NCBI GenBank assembly: GCA_965208575.1
Contig: CBDBOV010000006.1
Span: 1,248,001-1,312,000 of the forward strand
Direction: 5' to 3'
Length of the DNA stretch: 64,000 nt
DNA from: Spirochaetia bacterium
GTDB lineage: Bacteria > Spirochaetota > Spirochaetia > SZUA-6 > Bin103
In this document: positions 17,213 through 34,708 of the stretch, piece by piece
Layout of the letters: every line of letters starts with the position of its first letter
Numbering within the stretch: the first letter of the stretch is position 1
Program-made: the position numbers and the translations under genes
The notes under the pieces: model-generated
What the model saw: the letters and a program-made list of their open reading frames with translations, nothing else
Databases searched by the model: none
What the model was told of the DNA's origin: nothing

Positions 17213-18013
17213 TCAGCGGGCGAGGATTGCTTCGAGGTTGGGGCGGTCGATCAGGGCGGCGTCGGCGGGGCGCTCCAGGAAGGGCTGCACGTCGCGGGCC
17301 AGTTCGCGGGTGTCCAGGCCGGCCAGGCGCGCGGACAGCAGGTCGCGCCAATCGGCCGCCCGGTACGTGCCTGCGCCTTGCGTCTGGTCGAGTGCGTTCT
17401 GCAGGAGTTGCAGGTTCGGCTCCAGCGGCGGGCGGCGTGAGCGGTACCAGATCAGGTCGTACCAGTCGCGGCCCTTGGGGTAGCCGCGGGTCAGCAGCGC
17501 GTGCAGCTTGCCGGCGAACAGCGATGGCAGGTCGTAGTGGCTGACGACGAAGGTGAAGTGGCGGGTCACGAGCGTGCGCTGCATCGCGGCGCCTGCCGGC
17601 GGACGGATGTCGATCTCCAGCTTCACGGAGAGGTTCTGGCGCGCGTGGCCGGACAGGCCGGCCTCCGCTAGCAGGTGCGCGGTTCGCACCCAGGCCACCT
17701 GCACCGGCTCGCGGTCGATCCAGCGAATGGTGCTGTCGAAGCCGGCGAGGTGGAGGTCGCGCTTCAGTTTCTCCAGCCAGCGCACGGGTTCGTAGCCGTC
17801 AGCAGAGACGCGGGAGAAGTCGAGGTCTTCCGAGAAGCGCGGCAACTCCTCCAGGAAGCGCAGCGCCGTGCCGCCGACGAACGCCACCGCCCGCCCCGCC
17901 TCGCTCTCGTGCAGCGACCGCATGATGAACGCCTGCAGGTACTCGCGCAGCGCGTTGAGCCGGCGCGGCGGATCGTCGAATCGTAGCGCCTGGGCGAGCG
18001 CCTGATCCTTCAC
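17213..18013 (-). CDS. AbiEii-family nucleotidyltransferase toxin
   Basis: LREYLQ, FVGGTALR, RFSEDLDFS, GKLHAL, KGRDWYD. GTGA overlap with the upstream gene. Confidence 0.9.
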   Translation of the reverse strand: MKDQALAQALRFDDPPRRLNALREYLQAFIMRSLHESEAGRAVAFVGGTALRFLEELPRFSEDLDFSRVSADGYEPVRWLEKLKRDLHLAGFDSTIRWIDREPVQVAWVRTAHLLAEAGLSGHARQNLSVKLEIDIRPPAGAAMQRTLVTRHFTFVVSHYDLPSLFAGKLHALLTRGYPKGRDWYDLIWYRSRRPPLEPNLQLLQNALDQTQGAGTYRAADWRDLLSARLAGLDTRELARDVQPFLERPADAALIDRPNLEAILAR

Positions 18014-18651
18014 AGTTCGACTCCCTCGGCTTCCTGCTCGGCGCTGCACGCCAGCCACACGTCCACGGCGCGCCCGATGCGCGGCTTTCCGATGCGATGC
18101 GCAAAAGCGCGCAGGCGGTCGCGGTCGACGACGTCGGTCTGCTGGAACCGCATCTCGGTCATCCGGCGCCGGTCCCACTCGCCCGGGTGCAGGTGGAACA
18201 GGTCGAGCAGCGCCTTCTCGGCGGTCGCCACCAGCGCGTCGCTGCCGGCGACCGACACGCCGTGGTAGCCGAAGAACATGCTCCTCTTGATGGCCGTGTA
18301 GCGGAACATGCCGAACGTATTTTCGAAATGAGCGGGACCGCGGGTGGTCACGCTGGTGTAGACCGGCACCGCCTCGGGGATCAGGCCGTAGAAACCGAGC
18401 GCCCAGGGGCCGCTGAGATAGGACGGAGAGCAGAGGGCGTTGGCCAGCGCCGCCGGCGGCACCGGCACGCGGCGGTAGCGGTCGGCCAGGGCATACATGC
18501 CGCGGCGCAGCGGGATCAGCTTGCCCGCCCGGCTCCAGCGGTAGAGCTGGTTCACCACGTCGCGCCGCGGTTCGCCGCACAGTTGCACGACCGTCGCCAA
18601 GTCGAACCAGGGCGTCGCACCCAGCAGGTCTGCCACTTCATCAAGGCGCAT
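18010..18651 (-). CDS. AbiEi-family antitoxin (type IV TA)
   Basis: LRRGMY, PSYLS..WALGFYGLIPE, TSVT, EKALLDL. Confidence 0.88.
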   Translation of the reverse strand: MRLDEVADLLGATPWFDLATVVQLCGEPRRDVVNQLYRWSRAGKLIPLRRGMYALADRYRRVPVPPAALANALCSPSYLSGPWALGFYGLIPEAVPVYTSVTTRGPAHFENTFGMFRYTAIKRSMFFGYHGVSVAGSDALVATAEKALLDLFHLHPGEWDRRRMTEMRFQQTDVVDRDRLRAFAHRIGKPRIGRAVDVWLACSAEQEAEGVEL

Positions 18652-18661
18652 ATTACAAACC

Positions 18662-18699
18662 GTTGATGATAACCTACAGAAACGCCGGTTATTGTCAAC
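18662..18699 (-). promoter_or_regulatory. abiE promoter with inverted-repeat operator
   Basis: GTTGATGATAACC / GGTTATTGTCAAC (11/13 IR) overlapping a minus-strand TTGACA. AbiEi autoregulation through promoter IRs is established for this family. Confidence 0.6.
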
Positions 18700-18760
18700 A
18701 GTTCCCGCCTGAGAGACCCAGGGTTCCACCAAGTTTCGACGGGCAGTGCTGCGGACCGTA

Positions 18761-19324
18761 CTAAACGTTAGCGGCGTCGAAGAGCGAGTGGACGTCGACG
18801 GTCAGGCCCGGCAGGAGGGGGGATTCCACTTGCGCTCCACGGGCAAAGGTGCCGTGCTCGATATACGCGCCGTCGCGGTAGGTCAGCACCGTGACCTCGG
18901 CGGTGCGAGGGTCGACGATCCAGTACTCGGGGATCCCGGCACCGGCGTAGTCGCGCCGCTTGTCCACCACGTCGCGTTCCGGTTGGTCTGGGCTGACGAT
19001 CTCGACCACCACGTCCGCCCCGGTCCAGAACCGGTTGCCGCGGCGGGCATCGGCGGCGTCCCGCGCCAGCAACAGGTCCGGTTCGCGAAACGTCCCGTCC
19101 GCTGTGCGCAACCGCAACGGGGCGAACAGTACCTTGCCGCCGCGTCCATGCACGAACGCCGCAAACAACTCGTAGAGAAAGGCCAGGATGCTCTGGTGCT
19201 CGTCGGTCGGCATCGGAAGCAACTCAAGGTGGCCATCGGTCAACTCGATCAACTGACTGCTGTGGTCGCTCAGCCATAGATACTCGTCCTCGCGCCACCC
19301 ACCTTGCTGGAGACAAACCGCCAC
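18761..19324 (-). CDS. Uma2-family PD-(D/E)XK endonuclease
   Basis: ELTDGHL, P..EHQ, REPDL, VVEIVSP, D..DKRRDY, GIPEYWIVDP. Confidence 0.9.
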   Translation of the reverse strand: MAVCLQQGGWREDEYLWLSDHSSQLIELTDGHLELLPMPTDEHQSILAFLYELFAAFVHGRGGKVLFAPLRLRTADGTFREPDLLLARDAADARRGNRFWTGADVVVEIVSPDQPERDVVDKRRDYAGAGIPEYWIVDPRTAEVTVLTYRDGAYIEHGTFARGAQVESPLLPGLTVDVHSLFDAANV

Positions 19325-19328
19325 TGTC

Positions 19329-20249
19329 TTACTTTGCCTTCCTTGCTGCGTCGTAGCGGCCGGCGCCGCCTCTCAGGCGCGGGTCGAGGAGGTCCCTTAT
19401 CGCGTCGCCGACCATGTTCAGGCTGTACACCACGGTGGTCAGGCAGAGACCCGGCCAGAGCGCCAGCCACGGCGCCGACTCCATGTACTTGCGGCCTTCC
19501 CGGCTGAGCATCCCGCCCCAGCTCGGGACCTCGATCGGCATGCCGTAACCGAGGAAACTGAGGGACGCCTCCGATATGACTACCGCGCCGATGTTGATGC
19601 TGAAGATGATGATCACCGGAGCCGCAATATTGGGCAGCACGTGGCGCGTGAGTATATTCCATTGCGAGCATCCGATTGCTTCTGCGGCCTGAAAATAGGT
19701 GTTCTCCTTCACCCCGATGACCGCGCCTCTGGCGATTCTCGAGCCGGGTATGCCGCCGGATATGCCGAGCACGATGATGATCTGAAACATTCCACGTCCC
19801 ACTATCGACATGATCGTCAACAACAGGAGAAGGCCGGGGAAACACATCCAGGCATCGACGAATCTCTGCACCGCCAGGTCGAATCTGCCGCCGATGAATC
19901 CCGACGTCCCGCCGATGAGCACCGCTACCGTGACCGTCAAGGCGCTGGCCACCATGCCCACGGTCAACGAAATACGGGCACCGTAGATAAGGCGGCTCAA
20001 GAAGTCCCGCCCCAGGTAGTCGGTGCCCAACGGATACGTTATCGATGGACCGGTCAAGCGGTCCTCCAAGTGCGGCTCATCATACGCGTACGGAGCAACG
20101 AAATCGGCACAAACAGCGACGATCACGAAGACCACGACGACGACACCGCAGATCGTGCCGAGCGGTTTTCGTTGCCACAACCGAATCAGGAAATTGACCG
20201 ACCCGATGCCTCTCTTGCGGTCGCCGTCCGCCGGCCCTGTTTCCCTCAC
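19329..20249 (-). CDS. ABC transporter permease (DppC-like), cassette 1
   Basis: LGTDYLGRD.LSRLIYGARISL, HVLPN, EASLSFLG, PSWG. Confidence 0.93.
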   Translation of the reverse strand: MRETGPADGDRKRGIGSVNFLIRLWQRKPLGTICGVVVVVFVIVAVCADFVAPYAYDEPHLEDRLTGPSITYPLGTDYLGRDFLSRLIYGARISLTVGMVASALTVTVAVLIGGTSGFIGGRFDLAVQRFVDAWMCFPGLLLLLTIMSIVGRGMFQIIIVLGISGGIPGSRIARGAVIGVKENTYFQAAEAIGCSQWNILTRHVLPNIAAPVIIIFSINIGAVVISEASLSFLGYGMPIEVPSWGGMLSREGRKYMESAPWLALWPGLCLTTVVYSLNMVGDAIRDLLDPRLRGGAGRYDAARKAK

Positions 20250-21202
20250 TTGTAGCGGATCCGGGGATCGAGATATGGATAGATCAGGTCGATGAGCAGG
20301 TTGATCCCGACCACCGATGTGGCGAAAAAGAGATTCACCCCGGACACCATCGGGTAGTCTCTATCCTCGAGGGCGAGCAGAAACAACCGACCCAAACCGG
20401 GCAGGTTGAAAATGTTCTCTATGATGACAGAGCCGCCGACCAGTACCGGAAGCTGGAGACCAATCAGGGTAACCACGGAGATGAGGGCGTTCTTGACCGC
20501 ATGCCTCATGACCACCACCCGCTCCCGCAATCCCTTCGACCACGCGGTCCTGATGTAGTCCTGCCGGAGCACCTCCAGCATCATGGTACGGGTCATGCGC
20601 ATGGTCGACGCGGAAAAGTATGTCCCCATAATTAGACTGGGGAGGAAGAACATGCCCAGATTCTCGAGCGGGTTGTCGGCGAATCGGATCAACCTCATCG
20701 GCGGTGACCAGTTCCACCAGATTGCCGGGAACACCATGATCATGGTGGCGATCCAGAAGCTCGGGGTGGCGATGCCGATTACCGCTACGGTGCGACCCAG
20801 ATAATCGCCGGCGGTCTCCTGCCGGATCGCTGAATAGACGCCGATCGGGAGAGCTATCACGAGGCCGATAATGATCGCCAGCAGACCAAGTTCGAGGGTC
20901 ACCGGTAGTCGGTCGGCAATCTTTTCTTCCACGGTCCAATCGCTCATCATCGATTCGCCGAGGGTGCCGTGCAGAATAATCCCGCCGATCCAGCGTCCGT
21001 ACTGGACGTGCGCGGGCACGTCCAGGCCCAGCCTGCGCTCGAGAATTTCCCGGTCGACGTTGCCGATCTGCTGTTCCATCACGCCCAGCATGGCATCTAC
21101 CACGTCACCCGGAATGAACCGGACCGAGAAGAACACCAGGACGCTGAGCAGAAACAGGGTTGGGATGATGAGCAGCAGCCGCCTGATGATGTAGGCTCTC
21201 AT
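20246..21202 (-). CDS. ABC transporter permease (DppB-like), cassette 1
   Basis: MRAYIIRRLL, PGD, DYIRTAWSKGL, RDYP. Confidence 0.93.
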   Translation of the reverse strand: MRAYIIRRLLLIIPTLFLLSVLVFFSVRFIPGDVVDAMLGVMEQQIGNVDREILERRLGLDVPAHVQYGRWIGGIILHGTLGESMMSDWTVEEKIADRLPVTLELGLLAIIIGLVIALPIGVYSAIRQETAGDYLGRTVAVIGIATPSFWIATMIMVFPAIWWNWSPPMRLIRFADNPLENLGMFFLPSLIMGTYFSASTMRMTRTMMLEVLRQDYIRTAWSKGLRERVVVMRHAVKNALISVVTLIGLQLPVLVGGSVIIENIFNLPGLGRLFLLALEDRDYPMVSGVNLFFATSVVGINLLIDLIYPYLDPRIRYK

Positions 21203-21222
21203 GTCCCCAACCTCAAGGTTGC

Positions 21223-21249
21223 GGGACGGCGGCGTGGCACCGCCGTCCC
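21223..21249 (-). terminator. Intercistronic hairpin after SBP
   Basis: GGGACGGCGG-7nt-CCGCCGTCCC perfect 10-bp stem; no U tract. Confidence 0.55.
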
Positions 21250-21262
21250 ACGGGTGAAATCC

Positions 21263-23056
21263 CTAGTAGCCCATTTCCTTTTTCAGCGCGCTGTCGAGCC
21301 AAAGCCGCGACCAGATGATACCGCCATAGTTCATCCCGCCGAGGGTGACCTCGCCGTTGAACCCGACAACCCACGGCTGAGCCGCCTGGTAGAGCGGGCC
21401 CTTCGGACCCCACGTCTGCACGTGCTGCTCTACCCAATACATGCTTCCCTTGATCGACTGTTCCTTCAGTTCCTCGATGGTGGTAGCCGCTCTCGCAGCC
21501 GCCACGATCGCGTTATAGGCAGGATCGTCAAACTGTCCGCGGTTCCATTGATGTCCTACCTCAAAGGTCGACAGGGCATCTACAGGCGGATAAGGAGTGC
21601 CCGCAATCGATTGTACCAGGCCACCAAAGCTCAGGTCCTTGATGCGGGCGACATGGGTAGCTCCTTGCACCGGCGTCAACGTGACATCGACACCAATCTT
21701 GGACCAGGAATTCTTGACCAGCTCTGCCCACTCCGGAGTGCTCGTCCAGTGGTCCAGGTTGGTCCTGATTCTGATCCCGTCGGCGCCCCGCGGATAGCCG
21801 GCTTCATCGAGCAGTTCCTCTGCCCGTTCCGGATTGTACGCGTACTCTTCCTTGAGCTCATCCGGCCACTCGTCGTATGGGGTCACGTACCCCACCCAGC
21901 CATCGCCGAGATAAGCTTGCGGCTTCCAAAAACTCGCGCCACCGAAAAAGGTATTGTGGAATGTCTCATTGTCCAGCGCCAACTGCATCGCGATACGCAC
22001 CCTGATGTCGTCGAATGGCGGTGCCGTCATGTTGAAGGCAAAACAATAATTGGACCTGAAGTACCACGGATACAAAACGATATCCGGATTGGTCTCGGCA
22101 AGGTTTTGCGCGGTCTCCAATACGCGTATGTTCGAGCCCCTCGCGCCGTGCCCGATGAAATCGATCTTGCCGGTTCTCAGTGCCGACAGGCGGGTGGTCT
22201 CTTCCGGCATGACCAGGGCTTCTACCCGGTCCATGTAGGGCAACCGGTTTTCCGGAAATTTCTCGTCGAATCCCCAGTAATTCGGGTTCCTTTCCCAGGT
22301 GATGGAACTGCCATCGACCCAATCGGTCAGCATGAAGGGGCCAGTACCGACCACATCCCGCCAATCGTTCACATCGCCCTTCTCCATGATCACCTCGGGG
22401 GGCAGGATGTAGGCAAGCGCGTCGTCGATGATTACCCGGAAGGCGGCCAGAGACGGTGTCTTCAGCTTGAACACGACGGTGTAGTCGTCGACCGCGGTTA
22501 CGGATTCCGCCGGAACCTGCGGAAGCTGCAAAGTGTAGCCGGGATAGTCGGTGAAGCCGCTGCCCAGGCCCATCAGGCGATGATAGTTGTACTCGATATC
22601 CTTGGCGGTCAGCTCGCGTCCGTTGAGCGGCGCCTTGTCGTGCCAATGCACGCCTTTGCGGATGTGGAAGACGTAGGTTAGCTGGTCCGGTGTCTCCCAG
22701 CTTTCGGCGAGAGCACCGGTATAGGCGACGTCGGCGACCAGCTCGGTACCGTAGTCGTACACGCTCCTGTCTATGCCCCAGTTTCCCTGGGAGAGCTTTT
22801 CATTGACGCCGCTGAGCAGGAATCCGGCGTGGTGACGTGCTACCGAGGGATCGGTTCCGTCCGGTTGACCGTTGTAGCCTGGAAAGAACGTTCCGCCGTA
22901 TTGCGGCGCCAGGATTTCCTTGCCGGTGGTGGGGTCGGTCACGTATGTCTTGGCGGCTGCCGGCGCCTCTTCCGAGGCAGCGGCCCATAGGCCGGTTGCG
23001 GCCAGGACGAGGACCAACGCAACCGCGAGGGTGGTCGTGAGTTTTCCTACCTTCAT
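21263..23056 (-). CDS. ABC transporter substrate-binding protein, family 5, cassette 1
   Basis: AAGGAG RBS; signal peptide MKVGKL...ATGLWAAASEE; LAESWE, RKGVHWH, GTGPF, RNPNYW. Confidence 0.93.
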   Translation of the reverse strand: MKVGKLTTTLAVALVLVLAATGLWAAASEEAPAAAKTYVTDPTTGKEILAPQYGGTFFPGYNGQPDGTDPSVARHHAGFLLSGVNEKLSQGNWGIDRSVYDYGTELVADVAYTGALAESWETPDQLTYVFHIRKGVHWHDKAPLNGRELTAKDIEYNYHRLMGLGSGFTDYPGYTLQLPQVPAESVTAVDDYTVVFKLKTPSLAAFRVIIDDALAYILPPEVIMEKGDVNDWRDVVGTGPFMLTDWVDGSSITWERNPNYWGFDEKFPENRLPYMDRVEALVMPEETTRLSALRTGKIDFIGHGARGSNIRVLETAQNLAETNPDIVLYPWYFRSNYCFAFNMTAPPFDDIRVRIAMQLALDNETFHNTFFGGASFWKPQAYLGDGWVGYVTPYDEWPDELKEEYAYNPERAEELLDEAGYPRGADGIRIRTNLDHWTSTPEWAELVKNSWSKIGVDVTLTPVQGATHVARIKDLSFGGLVQSIAGTPYPPVDALSTFEVGHQWNRGQFDDPAYNAIVAAARAATTIEELKEQSIKGSMYWVEQHVQTWGPKGPLYQAAQPWVVGFNGEVTLGGMNYGGIIWSRLWLDSALKKEMGY

Positions 23057-23078
23057 CAGGTATCTCCTTGTGTCGATG

Positions 23079-23246
23079 TGTCGATTTTCCGAGAGTATTG
23101 CAGTGCGGGTGGTCGCTCCCTGGCTACTCCCTCGCCGGCAACGCCGGCGGCCAGACGTAGTCAAATGGATTACAGCGCGCGGCGTGTGACTCAGCGGGGT
23201 TCACCCGCGCTCACGCCGCGCGCGGGTAGGGTTCTTTGAGTGTCAT
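23079..23246 (-). ncRNA. Candidate structured cis-regulatory RNA leader, copy 1
   Basis: Conserved with 31871-32038, with compensatory stems and two pseudoknot-type pairings (see findings). Confidence 0.7.
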
Positions 23247-23446
23247 CAAGCACCTCCAACGTTCGGTACGGTGACGGTGAATGGCGGCGACGGCGCGCGC
23301 GGGGGAGTGATCAGCCGGAGTGCTTGGTCGTTCTCGGTTCGACAAGGTTGACGGGTGGGCACCGGCTGCGTCACCGCCAACCGGTCACTGCGCTCACTGT
23401 CGCCATTGCGCATCATGACCATCCGTTCGATCCTTGAACCCTCCCG

Positions 23447-23475
23447 AGTCTCACAGGCTCGCCGGACCATGTCAA
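23447..23475 (-). promoter_or_regulatory. Sigma70-like promoter
   Basis: TTGACA-17 bp-GAGACT with a TG extension. Confidence 0.45.
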
Positions 23476-23558
23476 GCGCGCCGGCCGTCCGGTCTCGCCG
23501 GCCGGCGACTGTTCCGCCGTTACCCAGGCAGGCGGCGACGGCGCCGCGCGGGCAAGGG

Positions 23559-24710
23559 CTACTTGTAGGGGTCGGCGGCGTCGCGGAGGCCGTCGCCGAG
23601 GAAGTTGAAGGCGAGCACCGCGGCTACCACGAACAGGCCGGGGATCAGCAGCCACGGGTGCAGCAGCACGGCGTGCACGTTCTGGGCGTCCTTCAGCAGG
23701 GTGCCCCAGCTCACCACCGGCGGGCGCAGGCCCAGGCCCAGGAAGCTGAGCGCGGTTTCGCCCAGGATCATGTAGGGCACCGCCAGGGTCAGGCTCACGA
23801 TCAGGTAGCTCAGGAACGACGGCAGGAGGTGCAGGGCGACGATCTTGCCCTCGCCCCTGCCCGCCACCCGCGCCGCGGTTACGAAGTCCTGCTGGCGCAA
23901 CTCCAGCAGCTTGCCGCGCACCACCCGCGCCAGCCCCGCCCAGCCGAACATCGACAGGATGATGGTGATCGCGAAGTAGGTCTTCAGGGTGCCCCAGTGG
24001 GTCGGCAGGGCGGCGCTCAGCGCCATCCAGAGGGGGATGGTGGGCAGCGAGATCAGGATCTCGATGCCGCGCTGTATGATCATGTCGGGCTTGCCGCCGT
24101 AGTAGCCGGAAATGCCGCCCATGGTGCAGCCGAGCACGAAGCTCAGGAACACGCCCACCAGGCCGATCGACAGCGAGATGCGCGACGCGTAGACGGTGCG
24201 CGAGTACAGGTCGCGGCCGAGTTTGTCGGTGCCGAACAGGTAGAACGCACCGTCCTCGACCCCGGCCAGGCGCAGGTCCGCCTCCCAGATGCCCCACAGC
24301 TTGTAGGGGTCGCCGTGCACGAAGAAGCGGACGTAGTGGCGCGTCTCGGGGTCTTCCTTGTACACGCGGCGGAACGCCTTGCGGTCCACCACCTTCTGCA
24401 CGTCGTACACGAACGGGCGCAGCCCCCAGCCGTTCTGGTCGCCGAAGCGGATCTTCTGCGGCCGCATGTACACGAACTCCGCGTCGTGCTTGAGGATGTC
24501 GTGGGTGGCGAAGAACTCGCTGAAGAGGGCGAACAGGTAGAACACCGCCAGCACCGCCCCGCCGGCGATGGCCAGCCGGTGGCGCGTGAACTTGCGCCAC
24601 ATGAGCTGCCACTGCGAGGCGACGAAATAGCGGTCGTCCTCGGCGGCACGCGAGACCGGTCCGGCGGTGCGCGGCGCCTGACCCGCGCCGGGTGCGGCGA
24701 TGTCGCTCAT
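23559..24710 (-). CDS. ABC transporter permease (long DppC-like), cassette 2
   Basis: ASQWQLMWRKF, FGTDKLGRD, GETALSFLGLG, DAADPY. Confidence 0.93.
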   Translation of the reverse strand: MSDIAAPGAGQAPRTAGPVSRAAEDDRYFVASQWQLMWRKFTRHRLAIAGGAVLAVFYLFALFSEFFATHDILKHDAEFVYMRPQKIRFGDQNGWGLRPFVYDVQKVVDRKAFRRVYKEDPETRHYVRFFVHGDPYKLWGIWEADLRLAGVEDGAFYLFGTDKLGRDLYSRTVYASRISLSIGLVGVFLSFVLGCTMGGISGYYGGKPDMIIQRGIEILISLPTIPLWMALSAALPTHWGTLKTYFAITIILSMFGWAGLARVVRGKLLELRQQDFVTAARVAGRGEGKIVALHLLPSFLSYLIVSLTLAVPYMILGETALSFLGLGLRPPVVSWGTLLKDAQNVHAVLLHPWLLIPGLFVVAAVLAFNFLGDGLRDAADPYK

Positions 24711-24711
24711 G

Positions 24712-25707
24712 TCAGCCCGCCATCGCCTCGTAGCGGATGCGCGGATCGATCAGCACCAGCAGCATGTCGGAGATGAACGTGCCGATTACCACCATGAAGG
24801 TCAGCAGCATGGTGATGCTGCCGGCCAGGTACATGTCCTGCGCCAACAGCGCCCGGAACAGCAGCGGCCCGGTGGTCTCCAGCCCCAGCACGATCGCCGT
24901 AATCGTCTCTCCCGAAACGATGCCGGCCAGCGCCCAGCCCACCGTGCTGACGATCGGGTTGATCGACAGCCGCACCGGGTACTTGTACAGCAGCGTATGC
25001 TCGTCCACCCCCTTGGCGCGCGCCGTGATCACGTACTGCCGCGCCAGCTCGTCGAGCAGCGAACCGCGCATCACGCGCACCAGGTAGCCGGTGCCGGCGG
25101 TGCCGATCACCAGCACCGGAATCGGCATGTGCTTGAGCAGGTCGAGCACCCGCGCCCAGCTCCACGGCGCGTCGACGAACTCCGGCGAGAAAAGCCCGCC
25201 GATGCTCCAGCCGAACCAGCGGTTGAACAGCAGCATGAAGATCAGCGCGAGCAGGAAGTTGGGCGTCGCCAGGCCCACGAATCCCATGAAGGTGAAGGAG
25301 AAGTCGGCGACCGAGTACTGGTGGGTGGCGGAGTAGATGCCGATCGGGATCGCGATGACGTAGGCGAACAGCAGCGACGACAGCGACAGCAGCACCGTGA
25401 ACGGTAGCCGGTCGGCGATCAGCGTGCCCACCTTCTCCTTGAGGTTGAACGACCAGCCCAGGTTGCCGCGCGAAATGCGCCAGATCCACACCGCGTACTG
25501 CACGTGCACCGGCTTGTCCAGGCCGTACAGCTTGCCCATCGCCGCCAGCTCCGCCTCGTCGACGTCGCGCCCGAGCGCCTGCTGGTTGGCGCGGTACACG
25601 GTCAGGTAGTCGCCCGGCGGAAGCTGGATGATCAGGAACGAGATCATCGACACCAGCACCAGGACCAGGGCCATGTACAGCACGCGCCGGATGACGTAGT
25701 TAACCAT
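24712..25707 (-). CDS. ABC transporter permease (DppB-like), cassette 2
   Basis: IIQLPPGDY, YVITARAKG, QDMYLAG, DPRIR. Confidence 0.93.
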   Translation of the reverse strand: MVNYVIRRVLYMALVLVLVSMISFLIIQLPPGDYLTVYRANQQALGRDVDEAELAAMGKLYGLDKPVHVQYAVWIWRISRGNLGWSFNLKEKVGTLIADRLPFTVLLSLSSLLFAYVIAIPIGIYSATHQYSVADFSFTFMGFVGLATPNFLLALIFMLLFNRWFGWSIGGLFSPEFVDAPWSWARVLDLLKHMPIPVLVIGTAGTGYLVRVMRGSLLDELARQYVITARAKGVDEHTLLYKYPVRLSINPIVSTVGWALAGIVSGETITAIVLGLETTGPLLFRALLAQDMYLAGSITMLLTFMVVIGTFISDMLLVLIDPRIRYEAMAG

Positions 25708-25791: not shown

Positions 25792-27747
25792 CTACTGCTT
25801 GACCCACCACTGGTAGACGCGCCCGCGGAAGTTGCCCGCGGTGGCGTTGGTCCACGCCAGCTCGTCGTACAGGTTCATGATGTTGCGGCGGAAGATCATC
25901 GGGCGCGGCGGCAGGCCGACGGTACCGATGGCAAACACGTTCTCGGCGAACATCATCATGAATTCCTTGCCCATTGCCTGCCACTTGGCGTCGTCGAGCT
26001 CGTTGCGCATCGCGTGGCCGAGATCGAGCATCTCCTTGGCCACGCCGACCGGCTCCTCGCCCGACTCGCCGTTGGACTGGTACCAGTTGCGCCACATCGG
26101 CGCCCAGTGACCGATGGTCAGGAACCAGCCGCTCGCCGGGCTGTCGGTGCGGTACTTCAACTGGCTCGGTTCCATGATCCAGGTAGTCAGGTCGTAGTCG
26201 GCGTTGTTGGTGCGCAGCGAGAACAGGCTGCGCTCGATGATGCTGAACTTCAGCTCGATGCCCACCTCGCGCCAGTAGTTGGTGACCAGCTCGGAGATGG
26301 TGACCAGGTCGGCCAGGCCGGTGCCGGTGATCACCTCCAGGGTCAGGCGGTTGCCGTCGGAACTGAGCCGGTAGCCGTCGCCGTCGCGCTCGGTCAGGCC
26401 GATCTCGTCGAGCAGCCGGTTGGCCTCGTCCACGTCGTAGCGGATCGCCTCCTGCTCGGCGGCCTGCACCTCTTCATCGTAGAACGGCTCGTCGCCGAGG
26501 GCGAAGCCGAGCAGCGGCGTGGCCAGCCCCTGGAACACGATGTCGTTGATCTCGTCGCGGTCGATGGCGTGCGACAGCGCCTGCCGGAACCGCTTGTCGC
26601 GGTACAGCTCGCGCCGCACCGGGTCCTTGTGGTTCAGGTTCAGGTAGTAGGAGCCGGCGCCGGCCCAGGTGTTGGGGCCGATGATCACGTTGTAGTTGTA
26701 GCGCTCGGCGTTCTGCTCCAGCAGCGGCGCCTCGTCCATGCCGAAGCCCTCGACCAGGAAGTCGAACTCGCCGGCGATGCCGCGCGCCTTGACCAGCTCC
26801 GACTCGACCACCAGCACGCCGTAGATGTTGTCCAGGTAGGGGAGCTGGTTGCCGGCCTCGTCCACCTTCCAGTAGTAGGGATTGCGGTCCCAGACGGTGC
26901 GGTCCATGGTCACCGAGGTGGGTACCCAGGCGTACAGGTAGGGCGGGCCGGGATAGTGGATGTAGGGCCGCGTCTTTTCGCGCGTCTGGTTGAACAGTTG
27001 CCACCACTCCTCGAGCCCCTCTTCCTTGGCCTTCTTGTCGGCGTCCTCGTTGTAGTCGATGTGCAGCTCCTTGAAGTAGTGCGCCGGGAAGTAGTGGTTC
27101 ATGTAGCCATTGGCGGCCGTGAACATGAACAGTTGCGCGGGCGACGGCCCGGCGAACCCGAACTGCACGGTGCTGTCGTCGATCTGCGTGAAGGTCATGC
27201 GGGAGCCGTGCGACATCCAGGCGCCAGGGGTGAGCGGCGTCAGCTTGTCGTTGAACTGCACGTCCTCGTAGTAGAAGCGCAGGTCCTCGGCGGTGAACGG
27301 CGATCCGTCCGACCACTTGATGCCCTCGCGCAGGTGCACGGTGAGCTGCGACTTGTCGTCGTTCCAGTCCCAGGCGCGCGCCACGTTGGGCACCACGTTC
27401 AGGGAGTCCTCGGGGTCGAGCTCCATCAACGGTTCGATGTTGACGTGCGCGATCATGTACCAGTTGCCGGTGCTGTGCTTGATCGCCGTGATCGCACCGC
27501 CGTACTCGCCGATCTCATCCTTGACCTTTACCACCAGCGGCTCCGGCGGCAGCCGTTCCTCCACCGGCGGCAGGTCTCCGGACGCCACCAGTTGCGCCAG
27601 CGCGGGCGCCTCGTTGAAGCTGCCGGAAGCGGCCATCGCCCCCGCCGAGCTCGCCTCTGACGAGCCCTCGTCCTCGCCGCCGGCCCAGACCATCGCGGCC
27701 GAACCGAGCAGCACCAGCGAAACCATTACGCCGGTCATCGCTTTCAT
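25792..27747 (-). CDS. ABC transporter substrate-binding protein, family 5, cassette 2
   Basis: Signal peptide; EAPALAQLVASGDLPPVEERLP, KWSDG.PFTAED, RNPYYWKVD..GNQLPYLD. Confidence 0.93.
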   Translation of the reverse strand: MKAMTGVMVSLVLLGSAAMVWAGGEDEGSSEASSAGAMAASGSFNEAPALAQLVASGDLPPVEERLPPEPLVVKVKDEIGEYGGAITAIKHSTGNWYMIAHVNIEPLMELDPEDSLNVVPNVARAWDWNDDKSQLTVHLREGIKWSDGSPFTAEDLRFYYEDVQFNDKLTPLTPGAWMSHGSRMTFTQIDDSTVQFGFAGPSPAQLFMFTAANGYMNHYFPAHYFKELHIDYNEDADKKAKEEGLEEWWQLFNQTREKTRPYIHYPGPPYLYAWVPTSVTMDRTVWDRNPYYWKVDEAGNQLPYLDNIYGVLVVESELVKARGIAGEFDFLVEGFGMDEAPLLEQNAERYNYNVIIGPNTWAGAGSYYLNLNHKDPVRRELYRDKRFRQALSHAIDRDEINDIVFQGLATPLLGFALGDEPFYDEEVQAAEQEAIRYDVDEANRLLDEIGLTERDGDGYRLSSDGNRLTLEVITGTGLADLVTISELVTNYWREVGIELKFSIIERSLFSLRTNNADYDLTTWIMEPSQLKYRTDSPASGWFLTIGHWAPMWRNWYQSNGESGEEPVGVAKEMLDLGHAMRNELDDAKWQAMGKEFMMMFAENVFAIGTVGLPPRPMIFRRNIMNLYDELAWTNATAGNFRGRVYQWWVKQ

Positions 27748-27776
27748 ACCTACCTCCCTTGGAAGTGTGATGGTCG

Positions 27777-27805
27777 TTTATAGGCCACCCGGCCCCACCC
27801 GTCAA
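27777..27805 (-). promoter_or_regulatory. Sigma70-like promoter
   Basis: TTGACG-17 bp-TATAAA, upstream of a GGAGG RBS. Confidence 0.65.
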
Positions 27806-28014: not shown

Positions 28015-28980
28015 TTATCGCCGTGAAGGGGTGGCGACGTTCGACTTGGCGGCATCGGCGCCGAGACGACCCACGCCGCCCCTGAGCGTGGTTGCGCCAC
28101 GCAACCTTGGATCGAGCAGGTCGCGCACCGCGTCACCCAACATGTTGAAACTGTACACCACGATGGTCAGGCACAGGCCGGGCCACAGCGCCAACCACGG
28201 CGCCTGCTCCATGTACTTGCGCCCCTCCCGGCTGAGCATGCCTCCCCAGTCGGGGATGGTGGCCGGCAGACCGAATCCCAGGAAGCCCAGTGCGGCCAAC
28301 GCCATGATCACGCCGCCTATACTGGTGCTGAATGAAATGATTATGACCGGTGTGATATTGGGCACGACATGGCGTAGGAGCGATCTCCATCGCGACGAGC
28401 CAACCGCCTCGGCGACGTCGAAATAGGCGTTCTCCTTGATAGCGATGACAGCGCCTCTGATTACTCTCGCGCCGCCTATGCCGCCCGATATCCCCATGAC
28501 CAGGATGATCTGCAGCAGTCCCTCCCCCACTATGGCTATGAGGGTCAACAGCAGCAGCAATCCCGGAAACGCCATCCAGGCATCGACGAATCTCTGCACG
28601 CCCAGGTCCAGTTTGCCACCGACAAATCCCGAAACCCCACCGATCACGGTGCTGATGAATACGCTGATGGTGGTCACCGATACGCCGACCAGTACGGACA
28701 CGCGAGCTCCGAAGATAAGGCGGCTCAGGAGGTCTCGTCCGGCCTGGTCGGTACCAAGCAGATAACGGGCCGATGGGCCCTGCAGGCGGTCTACCAGGTG
28801 CAGTTCGGCATATGGATAGGGCGACAATGCATCTCCAAAGACAGCCACCAGGATTACCATGAGTATGACGACCCCGCTGGCCGCGCCCAACGGCTTCTCG
28901 GTGACCAGCCTGATAACGAATCTGGCCGCCGCGCTGCGTCTCCTGGGCTCGTTCACTGCGCCGACGGGCATCCGAGACAT
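28015..28980 (-). CDS. ABC transporter permease (DppC-like), cassette 3
   Basis: TGATG coupling with the upstream gene; LGTDQAGRD; close paralog of 19329-20249. Confidence 0.92.
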   Translation of the reverse strand: MSRMPVGAVNEPRRRSAAARFVIRLVTEKPLGAASGVVILMVILVAVFGDALSPYPYAELHLVDRLQGPSARYLLGTDQAGRDLLSRLIFGARVSVLVGVSVTTISVFISTVIGGVSGFVGGKLDLGVQRFVDAWMAFPGLLLLLTLIAIVGEGLLQIILVMGISGGIGGARVIRGAVIAIKENAYFDVAEAVGSSRWRSLLRHVVPNITPVIIISFSTSIGGVIMALAALGFLGFGLPATIPDWGGMLSREGRKYMEQAPWLALWPGLCLTIVVYSFNMLGDAVRDLLDPRLRGATTLRGGVGRLGADAAKSNVATPSRR

Positions 28981-29945
28981 CACTGGTAGCGAATCCTGGG
29001 ATCCAGGTAGGGGTACAGCATGTCGATGAGTAGAGAGCTGAACAACACGACGCTGGCCAGGAGCAGGTTGATTGCGGAAACGACCGGGTAGTCTCTCTGG
29101 TTGAGCGCAGCCACGAACAGGCGACCTATGCCCGGCAAAACGAATATCTCTTCCAAGATAACCGAGCCCCCGACCAGGAGAGGGAGCTGCAGGCCGATCA
29201 GGGTAAGGACTGGGATGAATGCATTCTTGATGGCGTGTCTGACAATGATCACCCTCTCCCTGAGCCCCTTGGACCAGGCCGTCCGGATATAGTCCTGCCT
29301 GAGCACCTCCAGCATCATGGTGCGCATCAGCCGCATGGTGGCGGCCGACATGGCCGTGCCCAGGATGAGGGACGGAATGAGGAACATCCCGAGATTCCCC
29401 AGCGGGTCTTCCGCAAACGGAATCAACTCTACCGATGGCGACCAGCCCCACCAGATTGCCGGGTAGAGCATGACCATGACGCCAAGCCAGAAGTTGGGCG
29501 TTGCCAAGCCGATGACGGCGACGGTGCGGCCTGCGTAGTCGATCGCCGTATCCTGGCGAATCGCCGAGTAGAGACCGACTGGCAGCGCTATGACGAGCCC
29601 TATTACGATTGCCATAACGCCAAGCTCGACGGTTACCGGCAATCTGCTTATGATCCTCTCCTCTATTGACCAGTGTCCCGTAAGTGACTCACCGAACGTG
29701 CCGCGCAGGAGAATATCTCCCATCCAGCGTCCATATTGCACGTGCACGGGCACGTCCAATCCCAGCATGCGCTCAAGCGCTTCACGGTCTACCACGCCAC
29801 CGGCGGAAGACCATGCTTCCATCTCCGCCACCATTGCGTCTATTACGTCGCCGGGGAGGAAGCGGACCGCGAGAAAGACTATGACGGTCAATATCCACAA
29901 GGTGGGGATGGTCAGCAACAAGCGTCTGATGAGATAGGCTCTCAT
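28980..29945 (-). CDS. ABC transporter permease (DppB-like), cassette 3
   Basis: MRAYLIRRLL, DYIRTAWSKGL; close paralog of 20246-21202. Confidence 0.93.
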   Translation of the reverse strand: MRAYLIRRLLLTIPTLWILTVIVFLAVRFLPGDVIDAMVAEMEAWSSAGGVVDREALERMLGLDVPVHVQYGRWMGDILLRGTFGESLTGHWSIEERIISRLPVTVELGVMAIVIGLVIALPVGLYSAIRQDTAIDYAGRTVAVIGLATPNFWLGVMVMLYPAIWWGWSPSVELIPFAEDPLGNLGMFLIPSLILGTAMSAATMRLMRTMMLEVLRQDYIRTAWSKGLRERVIIVRHAIKNAFIPVLTLIGLQLPLLVGGSVILEEIFVLPGIGRLFVAALNQRDYPVVSAINLLLASVVLFSSLLIDMLYPYLDPRIRYQ

Positions 29946-29989
29946 GGGACAAATGCCCTTGTCATTGCTTAGCCTGAGCTATTTAGATG

Positions 29990-30032
29990 GGGAGCCGGGA
30001 AGCGCCCGCAGGCGAATCGCCTCCCGGCTCCC
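29990..30032 (-). terminator. Intercistronic hairpin after SBP
   Basis: GGGAGCCGGGA ... TCCCGGCTCCC 11-bp perfect stem. Confidence 0.55.
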
Positions 30033-30042
30033 TTATTCATCA

Positions 30043-31857
30043 CTAGTTTCCCATCTCTTCCTTCATCTCCTGGTCGATCCAGAGGCGCGCCAGGTGGGTC
30101 ATGCGTTCGCCCCATCCCATGCCTGCTTCACCGAAATAACCCTGAACCCACGGTTGGTTCACGAAATGATTGGGGATGTTGGATTTCACCAAGCCGCAGT
30201 GCTCCCTTACGCAGAGCTCATCGGACTGTCTCTGTATCCTCTTGAACTCCTCGATGTCGGTAGTCTCCGAGGCGGCAACATAAAGGGCGTCCATGCGCGG
30301 ATCATTCATCTTGTTGGCGCTGCGGCCGCTGACCAGTGTGGTTACCGCTCCAAACGTGTATCCGACCAGGCCGGGGCCGCCGAAGTAGCCGTAATACGAA
30401 GTAAATAAGCCGTACTCAAGCGTTTCCGCCTTCAAGGCAGCTCCCATTTCAGCGGTACCGAACACCTCAAGCTCGCCTTTTACGCCAATGGCGTCGAGGT
30501 AGCCGATGACCAGTTCCGGATAGGTCTCATCCCACCGGTCGAAATGGCCCAGCTTGATGGTAAATCTATAACCGTCGTCGCCGCGCGGATAGCCGGCAGC
30601 ATCAAGCAACGCCTCTGCCTCTTCCGGGTGATACTCATACTCATGCTTGACGTCGTCCGGCCACTCTGCATATGGCCAGCTATACTGTGGCGTGAATTGG
30701 CCAACCAACCCGTACGGTGTTGGATCGCCCATACCCTTGTTGTAGGTAGCGTTGATGGTCTCGCGGTCCACTGCCATCTGCAGTGCCTTGCGCACATTGA
30801 CGTCCTGCATGAACGGCACAGTCCAATTGAAATAGAACGTGCCGCTAGGCCGGCTATAGACCGGCCAGAACTCCATTTCAGGGTTGGTCTGCTGGAGGCT
30901 CGCTACGTCGTCGATAGAGGTTACATAGGCGTCGCCGACGTTACTCAGCATATCAATCTTGCCGGTGCGCAGTGCCGCCAGACGTGTCGATGTGTCCGGC
31001 ATGAGCAGCGACCGGTACTCGTCAATATAGGGCAACCGGTTGCCGAATTTCTCGTCAACGCCCCAGTAGTCAGGATTCTTCACCCAGGTTGCCGAGCTGC
31101 CCTCCACGAAATCAGTCAGTCGCAAGGGCCCGGTGCCGACCACGTTGTTCCAGTCCTTGGCGTCTCCGTATTTCTCGATTACTTCGCGAGGTAACACGAT
31201 AAAGTAGTTGTTGGTCATTTTCCCGAGCACATCGAGCTGAGGCTTTGCCAGCTTGATCTCAATCGTCCATTGGTCGGTGGCCGTTACCGAGACGATTTCT
31301 GCACCCTGAGTTACCCCACCCTTGCCGGTGCTCGGCCCGTCTTCGGCGAAGTCCCCCAGGCCCAGAAAGCGGTGATAGTTCCATTCGACGTCATGAGCAT
31401 CGAACTGCCGACCGTTGACCGGCTCCTTGTCGTCCCAGTTGACGCCCTGGCGAATGTTGAAGATGAACGTGGTGTCGTCGGGCATCGACCAGCTTTCGGC
31501 CAGAGACCCTGTGCTCATCTCCGGGGTCACCACTTGGTACAATTCACCGCGCCATATATCTCTGGATAGTCCCCAGTCGGCGAACGCGAGCCGTTCATTG
31601 ACACCCCCGATGAGGTGTTGCGCCCAGCCAGTATTGAACCAGGGGTCGATACCCGGAGGATAGACCTTGGCGCCCCACGTGAGGATCCCGCCATACTCCG
31701 GCGCGGTCCACGTCCTTCCGGTCGCGGTGTCGAACACCGTTTCCCTCTCCGTAGCCGCCGCCGGCTCCTCTTCCGCGGCGGCGGCCCAGAGGCCGGTCGC
31801 CATCAGCACCAGGATCAACGCAACCGCAAAGGTCCTGGTAACTTGCATGAAATTCAT
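30043..31857 (-). CDS. ABC transporter substrate-binding protein, family 5, cassette 3
   Basis: Signal peptide ...ATGLWAAAAEEE; LAESWS, GTGP, KNPDYW; paralog of 21263-23056. Confidence 0.93.
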   Translation of the reverse strand: MNFMQVTRTFAVALILVLMATGLWAAAAEEEPAAATERETVFDTATGRTWTAPEYGGILTWGAKVYPPGIDPWFNTGWAQHLIGGVNERLAFADWGLSRDIWRGELYQVVTPEMSTGSLAESWSMPDDTTFIFNIRQGVNWDDKEPVNGRQFDAHDVEWNYHRFLGLGDFAEDGPSTGKGGVTQGAEIVSVTATDQWTIEIKLAKPQLDVLGKMTNNYFIVLPREVIEKYGDAKDWNNVVGTGPLRLTDFVEGSSATWVKNPDYWGVDEKFGNRLPYIDEYRSLLMPDTSTRLAALRTGKIDMLSNVGDAYVTSIDDVASLQQTNPEMEFWPVYSRPSGTFYFNWTVPFMQDVNVRKALQMAVDRETINATYNKGMGDPTPYGLVGQFTPQYSWPYAEWPDDVKHEYEYHPEEAEALLDAAGYPRGDDGYRFTIKLGHFDRWDETYPELVIGYLDAIGVKGELEVFGTAEMGAALKAETLEYGLFTSYYGYFGGPGLVGYTFGAVTTLVSGRSANKMNDPRMDALYVAASETTDIEEFKRIQRQSDELCVREHCGLVKSNIPNHFVNQPWVQGYFGEAGMGWGERMTHLARLWIDQEMKEEMGN

Positions 31858-31870
31858 ACGTTACTCCGCA

Positions 31871-32038
31871 TGTCGATTGTCGAGAGTATTGCGTAGCGGC
31901 CTGCCGCTCCCTGGCTACCCTCAAGCCCGCAACGCGGGCCGCCAGACTGAGTCAAAATTCACCGGCAGCGCGCGGCGTGTGACTCACCGGGCTCGCCCGG
32001 GCTCACGCCGTGCGCGGATGCGGTTCCTTGAGTATCAT
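31871..32038 (-). ncRNA. Candidate structured cis-regulatory RNA leader, copy 2
   Basis: Conserved with 23079-23246 (see findings). Confidence 0.7.
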
Positions 32039-32446
32039 TTTGCACCCCCTATTTTGATTTACTTGGCCACGGGGTGCCCGGTCATATGGCTGACAGAAGC
32101 TGTGTGTCTCGGGTCGGAAGGAGGGGTCGCCTACGGGGCGATCAGCCGGAGCGGTTAGTTGTTTCTCGGTCGAAAGTGCCGCGGAGGGAAGTGGGGGGGG
32201 GCGACGAGGCATGAATCTGTTCATGATTCTATCGCGGGCTTGTGATCGTGTCACGGACGTGGAGCGCGGGTAGCGCGGGTCAGCGCCAGCCCACCGACCG
32301 AGCCCCAGCGAGCCCCACTGCGGCATCGCCCGTGCTCGCGCAGCGAGAGGGCAACTGTCTCGGAAGCGCTTTGTCCACATTTTGCGCGCCGCGGCTACAA
32401 GCGCGCAAGTGACCCTTCGCACCAGGCCGGGCCTGCCGGACGCGAG

Positions 32447-33522
32447 TCACATACCCCACACGTCGACTGCCACCGCGCTGCCGCCGCGCGCCGGGTTGTG
32501 CCGCAGATGGAGCACCTTCTCCTCCCAGCTCCGCCGCTCCCGGCGGTCGATCACGACCAGGTGCCCCGCTTCGGCCGCGCTGCGGTCCACGTAGCGAGCC
32601 GTCTGCGCGACGCCCTCCGCGATGACGCCATCGAGCCCGTCGCGCTCCCGCACCACCTTGCACTCCACCACGAACTCCTGCACCCGGTCGGCCATCGGCC
32701 ACACGATCAGCAGGTCCACCCTCCCGCTGCCCAGGGCGTATTCGCGCTCGATGCGCCCGCCGCCGTTCACCACGCGCTGCAAGTACGCCTGCAGGAGCAA
32801 CTGCGCGCCTGGGTCCACACCGCCTCCAGCGCCTCAGGCGCGAATGCCTGGCCGGTCTCTTCCGCGTGCTGGGTCAGCAGCGCCAGCGTCTGCGCCCGTG
32901 AGAAGTCTCCCAGCCGCAGCGACGCCGCGGCGATGTTGAATGGGCTGCCGGCGGCGCCCATGCGGTAGTCGCGCAGGTCGCGCATGCCGCACAGGACCAC
33001 GCTGTGCGGGAAGCGTTCCGGACGCCCGGGGTAGCCGGCGCGGATCTGCTGGAGCACCGACAGGAGCGAATCGCCCACCAGCGTGTCGATCTCGTCGATC
33101 AGCAGCACCAGCGGGCGCGCCGACGCCTGCGCCCAGCGCTCCAGAGCTACGCTCAACGCCAGGTCCGGACCGAACTCAGCGAGGATCTCCGCCCAAACGC
33201 CTCGCAGGAATCGGTCGCCCGACGCCGCATCTGCCGCATTCGCCAGCGTGGCGAGGACCACGCGCATCGCCCGCTGCACGTCGTCGCGGGCGGTGCGGGC
33301 GGTCTCGACCGTGACGTAAACGCAACCGTATCCTCGCTCGTTCAACACTTCGGCCAGCGCCAACAGCGCCGACGTCTTGCCAGTCTGCCGCGGCGCGTGC
33401 AGCACGAAGTACTGCTCGTCCCGTACCAGCCCGAGCACTTCGTCCAGGTCGATGCGTTCAAGCGATGGGATACAATAGTGCTTGTCGGGCTTGACGGGAC
33501 CGGCGGTGGTGAACGAACGCAT
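32447..33522 (-). pseudogene. AAA-like ATPase with C-terminal PD-(D/E)XK-like domain, internally deleted and frameshifted
   Basis: MRSFTTAGP, APRQTGKT, LLIDEID. At ~32810 it jumps in another frame to QLLLQAYLQRVVNGGGRIEREYALGSGRVDL...VECK. Confidence 0.8.
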
Positions 33523-33686
33523 GGTATCCTCGCTTGGCGACGGCCGGGAGTGGCCCGGCGCTCCCGTGCGGAGTGTATCATAGCGCCTGCTCCACCTCCG
33601 GGAGCGCCCCTTGCTGCGATCTGCAACGGGTCGACGAGGAGATTCCCGCAGCCTTCGACCAATACGATGGAAGGAGACAAGAGAAA

Positions 33687-34610: not shown

Positions 34611-34708
34611 CTGCCCTTCACGAGCTGGCAGCCCGGTCGCGACGGCAACCACGCGCCCGCGTGCCGACGCGCCTTGATGCGGTGATGTAACGATGCGATG
34701 ATACCGTG

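Follow-up and report, generated by a model that had tools for sequence, protein, structure and literature searches.

A repeated structured RNA leader with a conserved short reading frame precedes SBP-permease operons in one spirochaete genus

A leader of ~190-210 nt, in which a folded RNA is combined with a short open reading frame (the leader ORF), forms the 5' part of the mRNA of SBP-permease operons in a Spirochaetia genome, where it recurs about 60 times. The leader probably controls these operons by a mechanism not described before. Two of its copies lie in the window, by which we mean the whole 64-kb stretch of DNA that was analysed. The features of these two copies and of the operons behind them are as follows.

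23447..23475, minus strand: candidate promoter, TTGACA-N17-GAGACT, ~195 nt before the leader ORF; weak, read by eye and putative
23253..23257, minus strand: Shine-Dalgarno (SD) sequence GGAGG of the leader ORF, copy 1
23211..23246, minus strand: leader ORF of copy 1, 11 codons plus TGA, MTLKEPYPRAA
23175..23223, minus strand: stem P1, 12 bp, 23212-23223 paired with 23175-23186
23194-23210, minus strand: apical hairpin inside P1, variable and deletable
23187-23193, minus strand: 3' bulge UGAGUCA in P1
23159..23163, minus strand: UGACU, partner of UGAGUCA (pseudoknot 1); family consensus UGACUC
23120..23154, minus strand: module 2, with outer stem CUGGC/GCCAG formed by 23150-23154 and 23120-23124
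23133-23149, minus strand: module-2 hairpin CGCCGGC-GUU-GCCGGCG
23125-23131, minus strand: module-2 bulge GGGAGUA
23102..23119, minus strand: P4 hairpin region, consensus GGAGCGG-CAAU-CCGCUCC; weak in copy 1
23091..23101, minus strand: conserved tail GCAAUACUCUC, whose UACUCUC (23091-23097) pairs with the GGGAGUA bulge
23054..23068, minus strand: SD AGGAG (23064-23068) and ATG (23054-23056) of the SBP gene
19329..23056, minus strand: operon 1, SBP 21263-23056, permeases 20246-21202 and 19329-20249, no ATPase gene
31880..32049, minus strand: leader copy 2, SD GGGGG 32045-32049, tail UACUCUC 31882-31888
32003-32038, within copy 2: leader ORF of copy 2, MILKEPHPRTA
28015..31857, minus strand: operon 2, SBP 30043-31857, permeases 28980-29945 and ~28015-28980, assigned by Pfam

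The first-pass annotation had proposed two tandem modules of stems, bulges and complementary segments upstream of both SBP genes. All of these elements were present on the minus strand in the two window copies, and the bulge variants GGGAGUA (copy 1) and GAGGGUA (copy 2) each pair fully with UACUCUC. The block of ~165 nt that it took as the extent of the element is indeed conserved, but the true 5' edge lies ~15 nt further out, at the GGAGG of 23253-23257. Likewise, the DNA beyond, held to be unrelated between the copies, is mostly so, except for a short common block, CTCCGGCTGATC, ~70-110 nt upstream. The position at which the element had been started, 23246, is the A of the ATG that opens the conserved 11-codon ORF. 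This ORF had been missed, as had the P4 hairpin, the copy number and the sister leader classes described below. With a covariance model, copies 1 and 2 scored 156.7 and 166.1 bits (E ~1e-38 to 1e-41), and a conserved 19-mer occurs twice in the window vs 0.11 occurrences expected.

Sites of the form TTGACN-N17-nAnAnT were found 75-200 nt before the leader ORF in ~6 other copies, while a stricter sigma-70 promoter scan of 22950-23600 found none. Two further elements were observed upstream of the leader. A block reading GAGAA.CAAC.AAC.GCTCCGGCTGATC lies ~50-150 nt upstream of the leader ORF (23290-23330 and 32140-32180, minus strand) in both window copies and in at least four other copies of the same genome. 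Directly 5' of the leader-ORF GGAGG, most copies in this genome (e.g. G000:C6:953178, plus strand) have a small GC hairpin of varying sequence (CCGG-N-CCGG, GGGCA-N-TGCCC and others), which could be a 5' protective stem.

The window's own genome (G000; 6.5 Mb, 67% GC, 6 contigs, 95% complete) holds not two copies, as counted from the window, but about 60, located at 58 places by BLAST, in 63 matches by nhmmer and in 62 by the covariance model; a DNA search of the genome gave 40 scored matches among 160 candidates. Nearly all nhmmer matches (59 of 63) lie less than 400 nt from the 5' end of a same-strand SBP-like ORF. The other four comprise two before SBP starts, one orphan truncated copy and one weak partial match (23.8 bits). 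The scatter that would mark a REP/MITE-like repeat was thus not seen, as 61 of the 63 directly precede a same-strand SBP gene.

Checked against Pfam, all eight further downstream ORFs that were tested contained SBP_bac_5, and behind 52 of 60 leaders stands an SBP gene with one or two permease genes. According to a local profile, the genome carries 204 SBP5-like ORFs, mostly with one or two permease genes beside them; 108 are close paralogues, and 53 of these were assigned this leader. The gene runs downstream of the 60 leaders showed no ATPase gene; the ATPases must therefore be shared and encoded elsewhere. In operon 1, Pfam gave SBP_bac_5 (4.5e-73) and two BPD_transp_1 matches. For the substrate of its SBP, no NCBIfam equivalog reached cutoff, and the nearest solved structures are generic binders of the Dpp/Opp/AccA type (E 1e-22 to 1e-27).

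The third SBP gene of the window (25792-27747) is without the leader. It is a distant SBP5 gene which, together with a permease gene at 24712-25707, occupies a minus-strand region (25792-27800) with no structured leader; a good promoter-like sequence, TTGACG-N17-TATAAA, stands ~35 nt before its SD. Directly after operon 1 (17213-19324, minus strand) there is an AbiEii/AbiEi type IV toxin-antitoxin pair, with overlapping ORF calls at 17213-18580 and 18010-18732, followed by a Uma2-family endonuclease at 18761-19324. Upstream of copy 2, the ORF at 32767-33702 (minus strand) encodes an AAA-type ATPase with AAA_22 and related domains, and its neighbour at 33699-34652 has no Pfam match.

To map the leader across genomes we used its covariance model, R1. 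In total, ~260 copies were found over eight genomes of one genus. Apart from the window's genome, R1 gave 84 matches in G005, 43 in G001, 35 in G006 and 33 in G003, with 5 in G007 and a single one in each of G004 and G008 at the low end. R1 had no match in three further genomes of the genus, in 13 from the sister genus or in 80 others sampled across the class, and BLAST found none in 17 genomes from other families of the same order. The leader was not found outside the genus and is, in the genomes searched, confined to it. Two of the leaderless genomes of the genus have only 7 SBP homologues each, and the closest homologue in one of them (48% identity) is preceded by a short, plain upstream region. 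The leader thus accompanies the SBP expansion within a subclade of the genus.

Pattern scans were also carried out on a species-genome collection and on metagenomes. The scan of species genomes matched two Spirochaetia bacterium MAG records (14 stretches and 1 stretch), and a full leader copy (172 bits) was found on JAPPFQ010000701.1 (L149), a 4-kb contig binned as Acidobacteriota that is probably mis-binned. A pattern match in Chromohalobacter was set aside as chance, having no covariance-model match. In the metagenome scan, none of six stretches was a true copy, and the sole covariance-model match reached 17.5 bits.

RNAalifold, run on 50 copies aligned with MAFFT, returned P1 and a single spurious helix and nothing else. 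Because so little was recovered, the structure was written by hand on a 70-copy alignment and its pairs were counted. The proposed stems, with P4 added, do pair: 91.7% of 3328 cells held standard pairs, vs 32-52% when the partners were slid. Two-sided changes were found at 16 pairs, vs 8.1 ± 2.0 in shuffles, and only one of 500 shuffles reached 16. P1 is nearly invariant, with 97% of cells paired, and its apical hairpin is absent in 14-16 of 70 rows, both arms of P1 being kept. In module 2, the outer stem is paired in 91% of cells and the inner hairpin in 99%, with three compensatory pairs and many changes of C-G to U-G in the latter. P4, finally, is paired in 90% of cells and has two compensatory pairs. 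Wobbles point to the strand: two pairs changed from C-G to U-G, in 22 and 27 rows respectively, and one P4 pair from G-C to G-U, in 24 rows. None of these replacements would pair on the opposite strand, which places the RNA on the sense strand; thermodynamic z-scores (sense -2.4, antisense -2.9) fail to separate the strands. Taken together, these counts uphold the earlier suggestion that the SBP operons have in their 5' leader a structured RNA, read from the sense strand, whose fold is under selection.

The two pseudoknots of the first reading fared less evenly. Both complementarities are present and the RNA is capable of forming them, but pseudoknot 1 is conserved almost without covariation: its five inner pairs match the consensus in 85-92 of 96 rows, 22 rows have a mismatch at the terminal A-U, and a two-sided change occurs in only two rows at each of two pairs. 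As P1 and pseudoknot 1 are nearly invariant, they yield no covariation, and a bound factor could explain their conservation equally well. The second helix, GAGAGUA:UACUCUC, has compensatory variants within the class (GAGCGUA/UACGCUC, GAGAGCA/UGCUCUC and GAGAGUG/CACUCUC) besides about a dozen uncompensated single changes. This covarying helix closes the second domain, which lies 8-25 nt before the SD of the SBP gene. In the minimum-energy fold of copy 1, GGGAGUA:UACUCUC appears as an ordinary nested helix and the CUGGC/GCCAG stem is not formed; only when both coexist do they make a pseudoknot.

A hairpin that presents the SBP SD in its loop, with the AUG paired, was predicted in 30 of 47 copies. 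It is not predicted in window copy 1, and with this distribution it was dropped as a defining part of the leader. We also considered a DNA operator formed by the P1 arms and TGAGTCA/TGACTC, which is unlikely given that the spacing varies and that the apical hairpin is deleted in many copies.

The leader ORF has the family consensus MILKEPHARAA and a short form, MILKEP-stop. Its SD is GGAGG in 35 of 55 copies in the window's genome and GGGGG or GAGG in 11 more, with 5-6 nt between SD and start in 49 of 53. The 11-codon frame is intact in 63 of 96 distinct copies, 33 of which read exactly MILKEPHARAA. Among the 33 copies without the canonical frame, nine are MILKEP-stop, several have an in-frame upstream GTG, four are long and a few are broken. 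At the start codon, the first base alternates (A in 72, G in 15, T in 5, C in 4) and bases 2 and 3 are conserved, so that ATG, GTG and TTG replace one another. In codons 3-6, non-consensus bases number 14, 19 and 73 at the first, second and third positions, nearly all of the changes being synonymous; the third-position excess is small when counted by variant type, and because the copies are related by descent, variant counts exaggerate how many independent events there were. The stop codon is TGA in 60 copies and TAA in three, where it is kept at the cost of one P1 pair. By these patterns, the leader ORF appears to bear the evolutionary marks of translation.

The ORF spans model positions 1-36, with the stop at 34-36, and the 5' arm of P1 spans positions 24-35. 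Its last four codons and stop thus constitute the 5' strand of P1, and any ribosome that translates the ORF has to open this stem. Codon 7 is poorly constrained (His, Tyr, Trp, Arg, Cys, Asp or stop). Read-through of the TGA, or its decoding as selenocysteine, was rejected, as the hairpin after the stop is often deleted and has indels whose lengths are not divisible by three.

Close SBP paralogues that lack the MILKEP leader (class A) carry other leaders, and at least five other classes occur in other SBP clades (examples at G000:C5:378842, minus strand; C4:609119, minus; C6:178321, plus; C1:351500, minus). Several classes share a 3' theme, namely an outer stem, an inner hairpin and a GAGAG-type bulge, followed at a constant ~20 nt, which include a small hairpin, by a CUCUC-type tail and then the SD. 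The helix between bulge and tail covaries across classes (GAGAGUG/CACUCUC, GGGAACA/UGUUCUC, GGGAGUG/CGCUCCC and GAGAGUGCU/AGCACUCUC). Class B has a strong SD and only a 1-3-codon start-stop ORF where the leader ORF would be, SD-in-loop hairpins were also seen by eye in classes B and D, and two sister classes have unrelated hairpin leaders. A CTCTC at 8-75 nt from the start becomes rarer with decreasing relatedness: it was seen for 65 of 107 close paralogues, for 5 of 23 of intermediate distance and for none of 60 distant SBP5 genes.

The reading that we favour, plausible yet tentative and based on sequence comparison, is that of a structured leader that acts in cis and is coupled to translation. 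While translating the leader ORF, a ribosome would melt P1 and may slow at the conserved Lys-Glu-Pro; proline reacts slowly as a peptidyl donor, and termination at Pro-stop is slow as well. The passage of ribosomes along the leader ORF would then decide the fold of the downstream RNA, during or after transcription. The chosen fold would include the UGAGUCA:UGACUC contact, the conserved GUU loop and the CGCAAU tail, and would set the usage of the SBP start site. In this fold, GAGAGUA might hold the pyrimidine tail UACUCUC and so keep it off the GGAG of the SBP start site. Because the same leader stands before ~55-60 different SBP paralogues, the signal would be global and not the substrate of each transporter; translation capacity, amino-acid supply or a common metabolite are candidates.

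We searched for signs of a switch by several means. No intrinsic terminator was found on the sense strand; the two terminator-like sites in 22950-23600 are plus-strand ones that fall within the SBP coding region. When the first 48 nt were made unavailable for pairing in a nested partition-function model, which leaves out pseudoknots, SD accessibility did not change consistently over 37 copies (median change 0.005; 13 copies up, 4 down), and the tail stayed paired. In this nested model, the UACUCUC tail is paired in almost all copies (median unpaired probability 0.04). Its complementarity to the SBP GGAG amounts to only four pairs, with no covariation. The conserved alternative complementarities that were found are invariant and GC-rich, show no covariation and hence prove nothing.

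An elaborated version of translation coupling is a peptide-gated class of riboregulators, in which Ile-Leu-Lys-Glu-Pro would pause the translating ribosome within the P1 5' arm, thereby gating a double-pseudoknot RNA. This RNA might bind a global ligand or cleave itself, more than 50 uptake operons would be switched at once, and codon 7 in the A site could tune operons to particular amino acids. We regard this version as doubtful.

The first-pass annotation did not recognise the element as a known riboswitch class, and this was borne out, as no Rfam 15 family reached its gathering threshold anywhere in the window. At E up to 10, the best match in 23000-23520 was radC, on the opposite strand and at 20.5 bits vs a gathering threshold of 40. 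Since the leader is absent from Rfam, annotation pipelines do not report it. A full-text literature search found nothing on the leader motif.

In its proposed mode of action, the leader has its closest parallels among leaders read by ribosomes. In the Salmonella mgtA leader, a proline-containing ORF, mgtL, is translated and the progress of the ribosome selects the RNA fold. The spirochaete leader resembles it in being a long 5' leader before a transport gene, with a structured RNA and a short ORF that overlaps one stem arm. It differs in that there is no similarity in sequence or by Rfam, that no terminator or Rho site was identified in it, and that it occurs in ~60 copies per genome with a peptide, Ile-Leu-Lys-Glu-Pro, that has a single proline. 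The ermC, cat, cmlA and tnaC leaders have a short ORF with its own SD, on which a paused ribosome opens an adjacent stem and the identity of the peptide matters; the spirochaete leader, too, has a short ORF with its own SD overlapping a stem. In the erm and cat leaders, the SD of the following gene is hidden directly by the stem that the ribosome opens, whereas P1 lies ~120-150 nt before the SBP SD, so that any coupling would have to pass through the second domain. Neither an attenuator-type terminator nor an SD-hiding helix exclusive with P1 was found, the complementarities being weak and invariant. Finally, a report on Sinorhizobium meliloti (PMC13285730) describes uORFs in 5' leaders whose action relies on translational coupling or on occlusion by ribosomes. 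As described there, they share with the spirochaete leader upstream ribosome-binding sites and uORFs in bacterial 5' leaders, and differ in being single-copy and in belonging to another organism, with no motif known to be common to the two.

Among RNAs that sense ligands directly, preQ1-II and SAM-II riboswitches likewise place the 3' strand of a pseudoknot just before the SD in a 5' leader. Their Rfam models do not match the spirochaete leader, which is much larger and has two modules and an ORF inside. HDV-like ribozymes have a nested double-pseudoknot-like arrangement, with a hairpin enclosed by an outer helix together with one strand of a further helix, the other strand of which comes after a second hairpin, and module 2 resembles their fold. 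However, the order of strands is a,b,b',c,a',d,d',c' in the spirochaete leader vs a,c,b,b',a',d,d',c' in HDV-like RNAs, and none of the Rfam ribozyme models matched. A riboswitch for a metabolite or ion, that is, a double-pseudoknot aptamer for one global ligand with the ORF being accessory or part of the expression platform, is rather unlikely. The leader does have the look of an aptamer, with the unpaired UGAGUCA bulge, the GUU loop, the GAGAGUA bulge and CGCAAU highly conserved while linkers and the peripheral hairpin vary. It also sits in the 5' leader adjoining the SD and, matching no known family, would be a new class. Yet neither a terminator nor a clear SD-sequestering alternative was found, and one aptamer ahead of ~55-60 transporters that presumably differ in specificity would be atypical. 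Furthermore, a strongly conserved translated ORF inside an aptamer is unusual among riboswitches.

The null result of the fold test and the nearly always paired tail would suit a leader that senses nothing and serves as a constitutive expression or stability module, where a ribosome at the leader ORF and stable helices would block decay from the 5' end and present the SD in a loop. The SD-in-loop hairpins of class A and of classes B and D fit this explanation, as do the strong SD and minimal ORF that class B retains at the equivalent place, and an identical module on many paralogues suits a generic role. Still, 5' stabilisers such as ermC and STAB-SD need little sequence specificity, and the near-invariance of the loops, the bulges and Ile-Leu-Lys-Glu-Pro sets the leader apart from them. 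We consider a pure stability module unlikely.

Alternatively, the leader could be a platform on which a trans-acting RNA-binding protein or small RNA co-regulates the SBP regulon. P1, UGAGUCA/UGACUC and the CGCAAUACUCUC tail are invariant in sequence beyond what structure conservation asks for, and there are several GGA or GGAG motifs and a C/A-rich single-stranded tail before the SD, all of which such a factor might recognise. CsrA is the obvious candidate. It was rejected, as PF02599 had 0 matches in the 95%-complete genome of the window in a search whose controls matched, and no candidate partner was identified. Moreover, the internal compensatory complementarity explains GAGAGUA/UACUCUC without a partner in trans. 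We hold this explanation to be quite unlikely.

The claim that the leader itself is under selection was supported by comparing it with its surroundings, of which it is the best-conserved part at each locus, above both upstream and coding DNA. Among paralogues (150 random pairs from 33 motif-picked copies), the median identity is 0.80 for the leader and 0.61, about background, for the region 260-420 nt before the SBP start; in coding DNA it is 0.79 over the signal-peptide codons, 0.77-0.79 over the N-terminal part and 0.65-0.71 in the middle and late gene. Between genomes, at five loci, identities are 0.86-0.91 for the leader, 0.58-0.69 upstream and 0.68-0.83 in coding sequence. For one copy in the window's genome, the best matches in other genomes reach 89-90% and the best within the genome 87%; that cross-genome matches exceed within-genome paralogues argues against simple within-genome homogenisation. 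A functionless REP/MITE-like repeat, or uniformity owed to recent duplication and gene conversion, might account for very many copies in few related genomes with none elsewhere, and for the similarly uniform N-terminal coding region (0.77-0.79), but is very improbable in view of the fixed position and orientation before SBP genes (61 of 63), the patterned conservation in which linkers vary and helices are kept with some compensatory changes, the codon-periodic variation of the leader ORF, and the between-genome identities, by which the leader is better conserved than coding sequence and copies are closer across genomes than to paralogues within one.

The leader is unusual both in its copy number and in coupling a conserved peptide with a pseudoknot-capable fold. 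As proposed, it would bring together two principles of control that are usually studied separately, the conserved leader peptide and the RNA domain folded into pseudoknots, and hundreds of natural variants already show which positions tolerate change. The leader dates the explosive expansion of SBP-permease operons to a subclade of one genus and ties this expansion to itself. If it works as proposed, one design would govern about a quarter of the 204 SBP5-like ORFs in a 6.5-Mb genome, which would place the leader among the most highly repeated cis-regulatory RNAs in any single bacterial genome.
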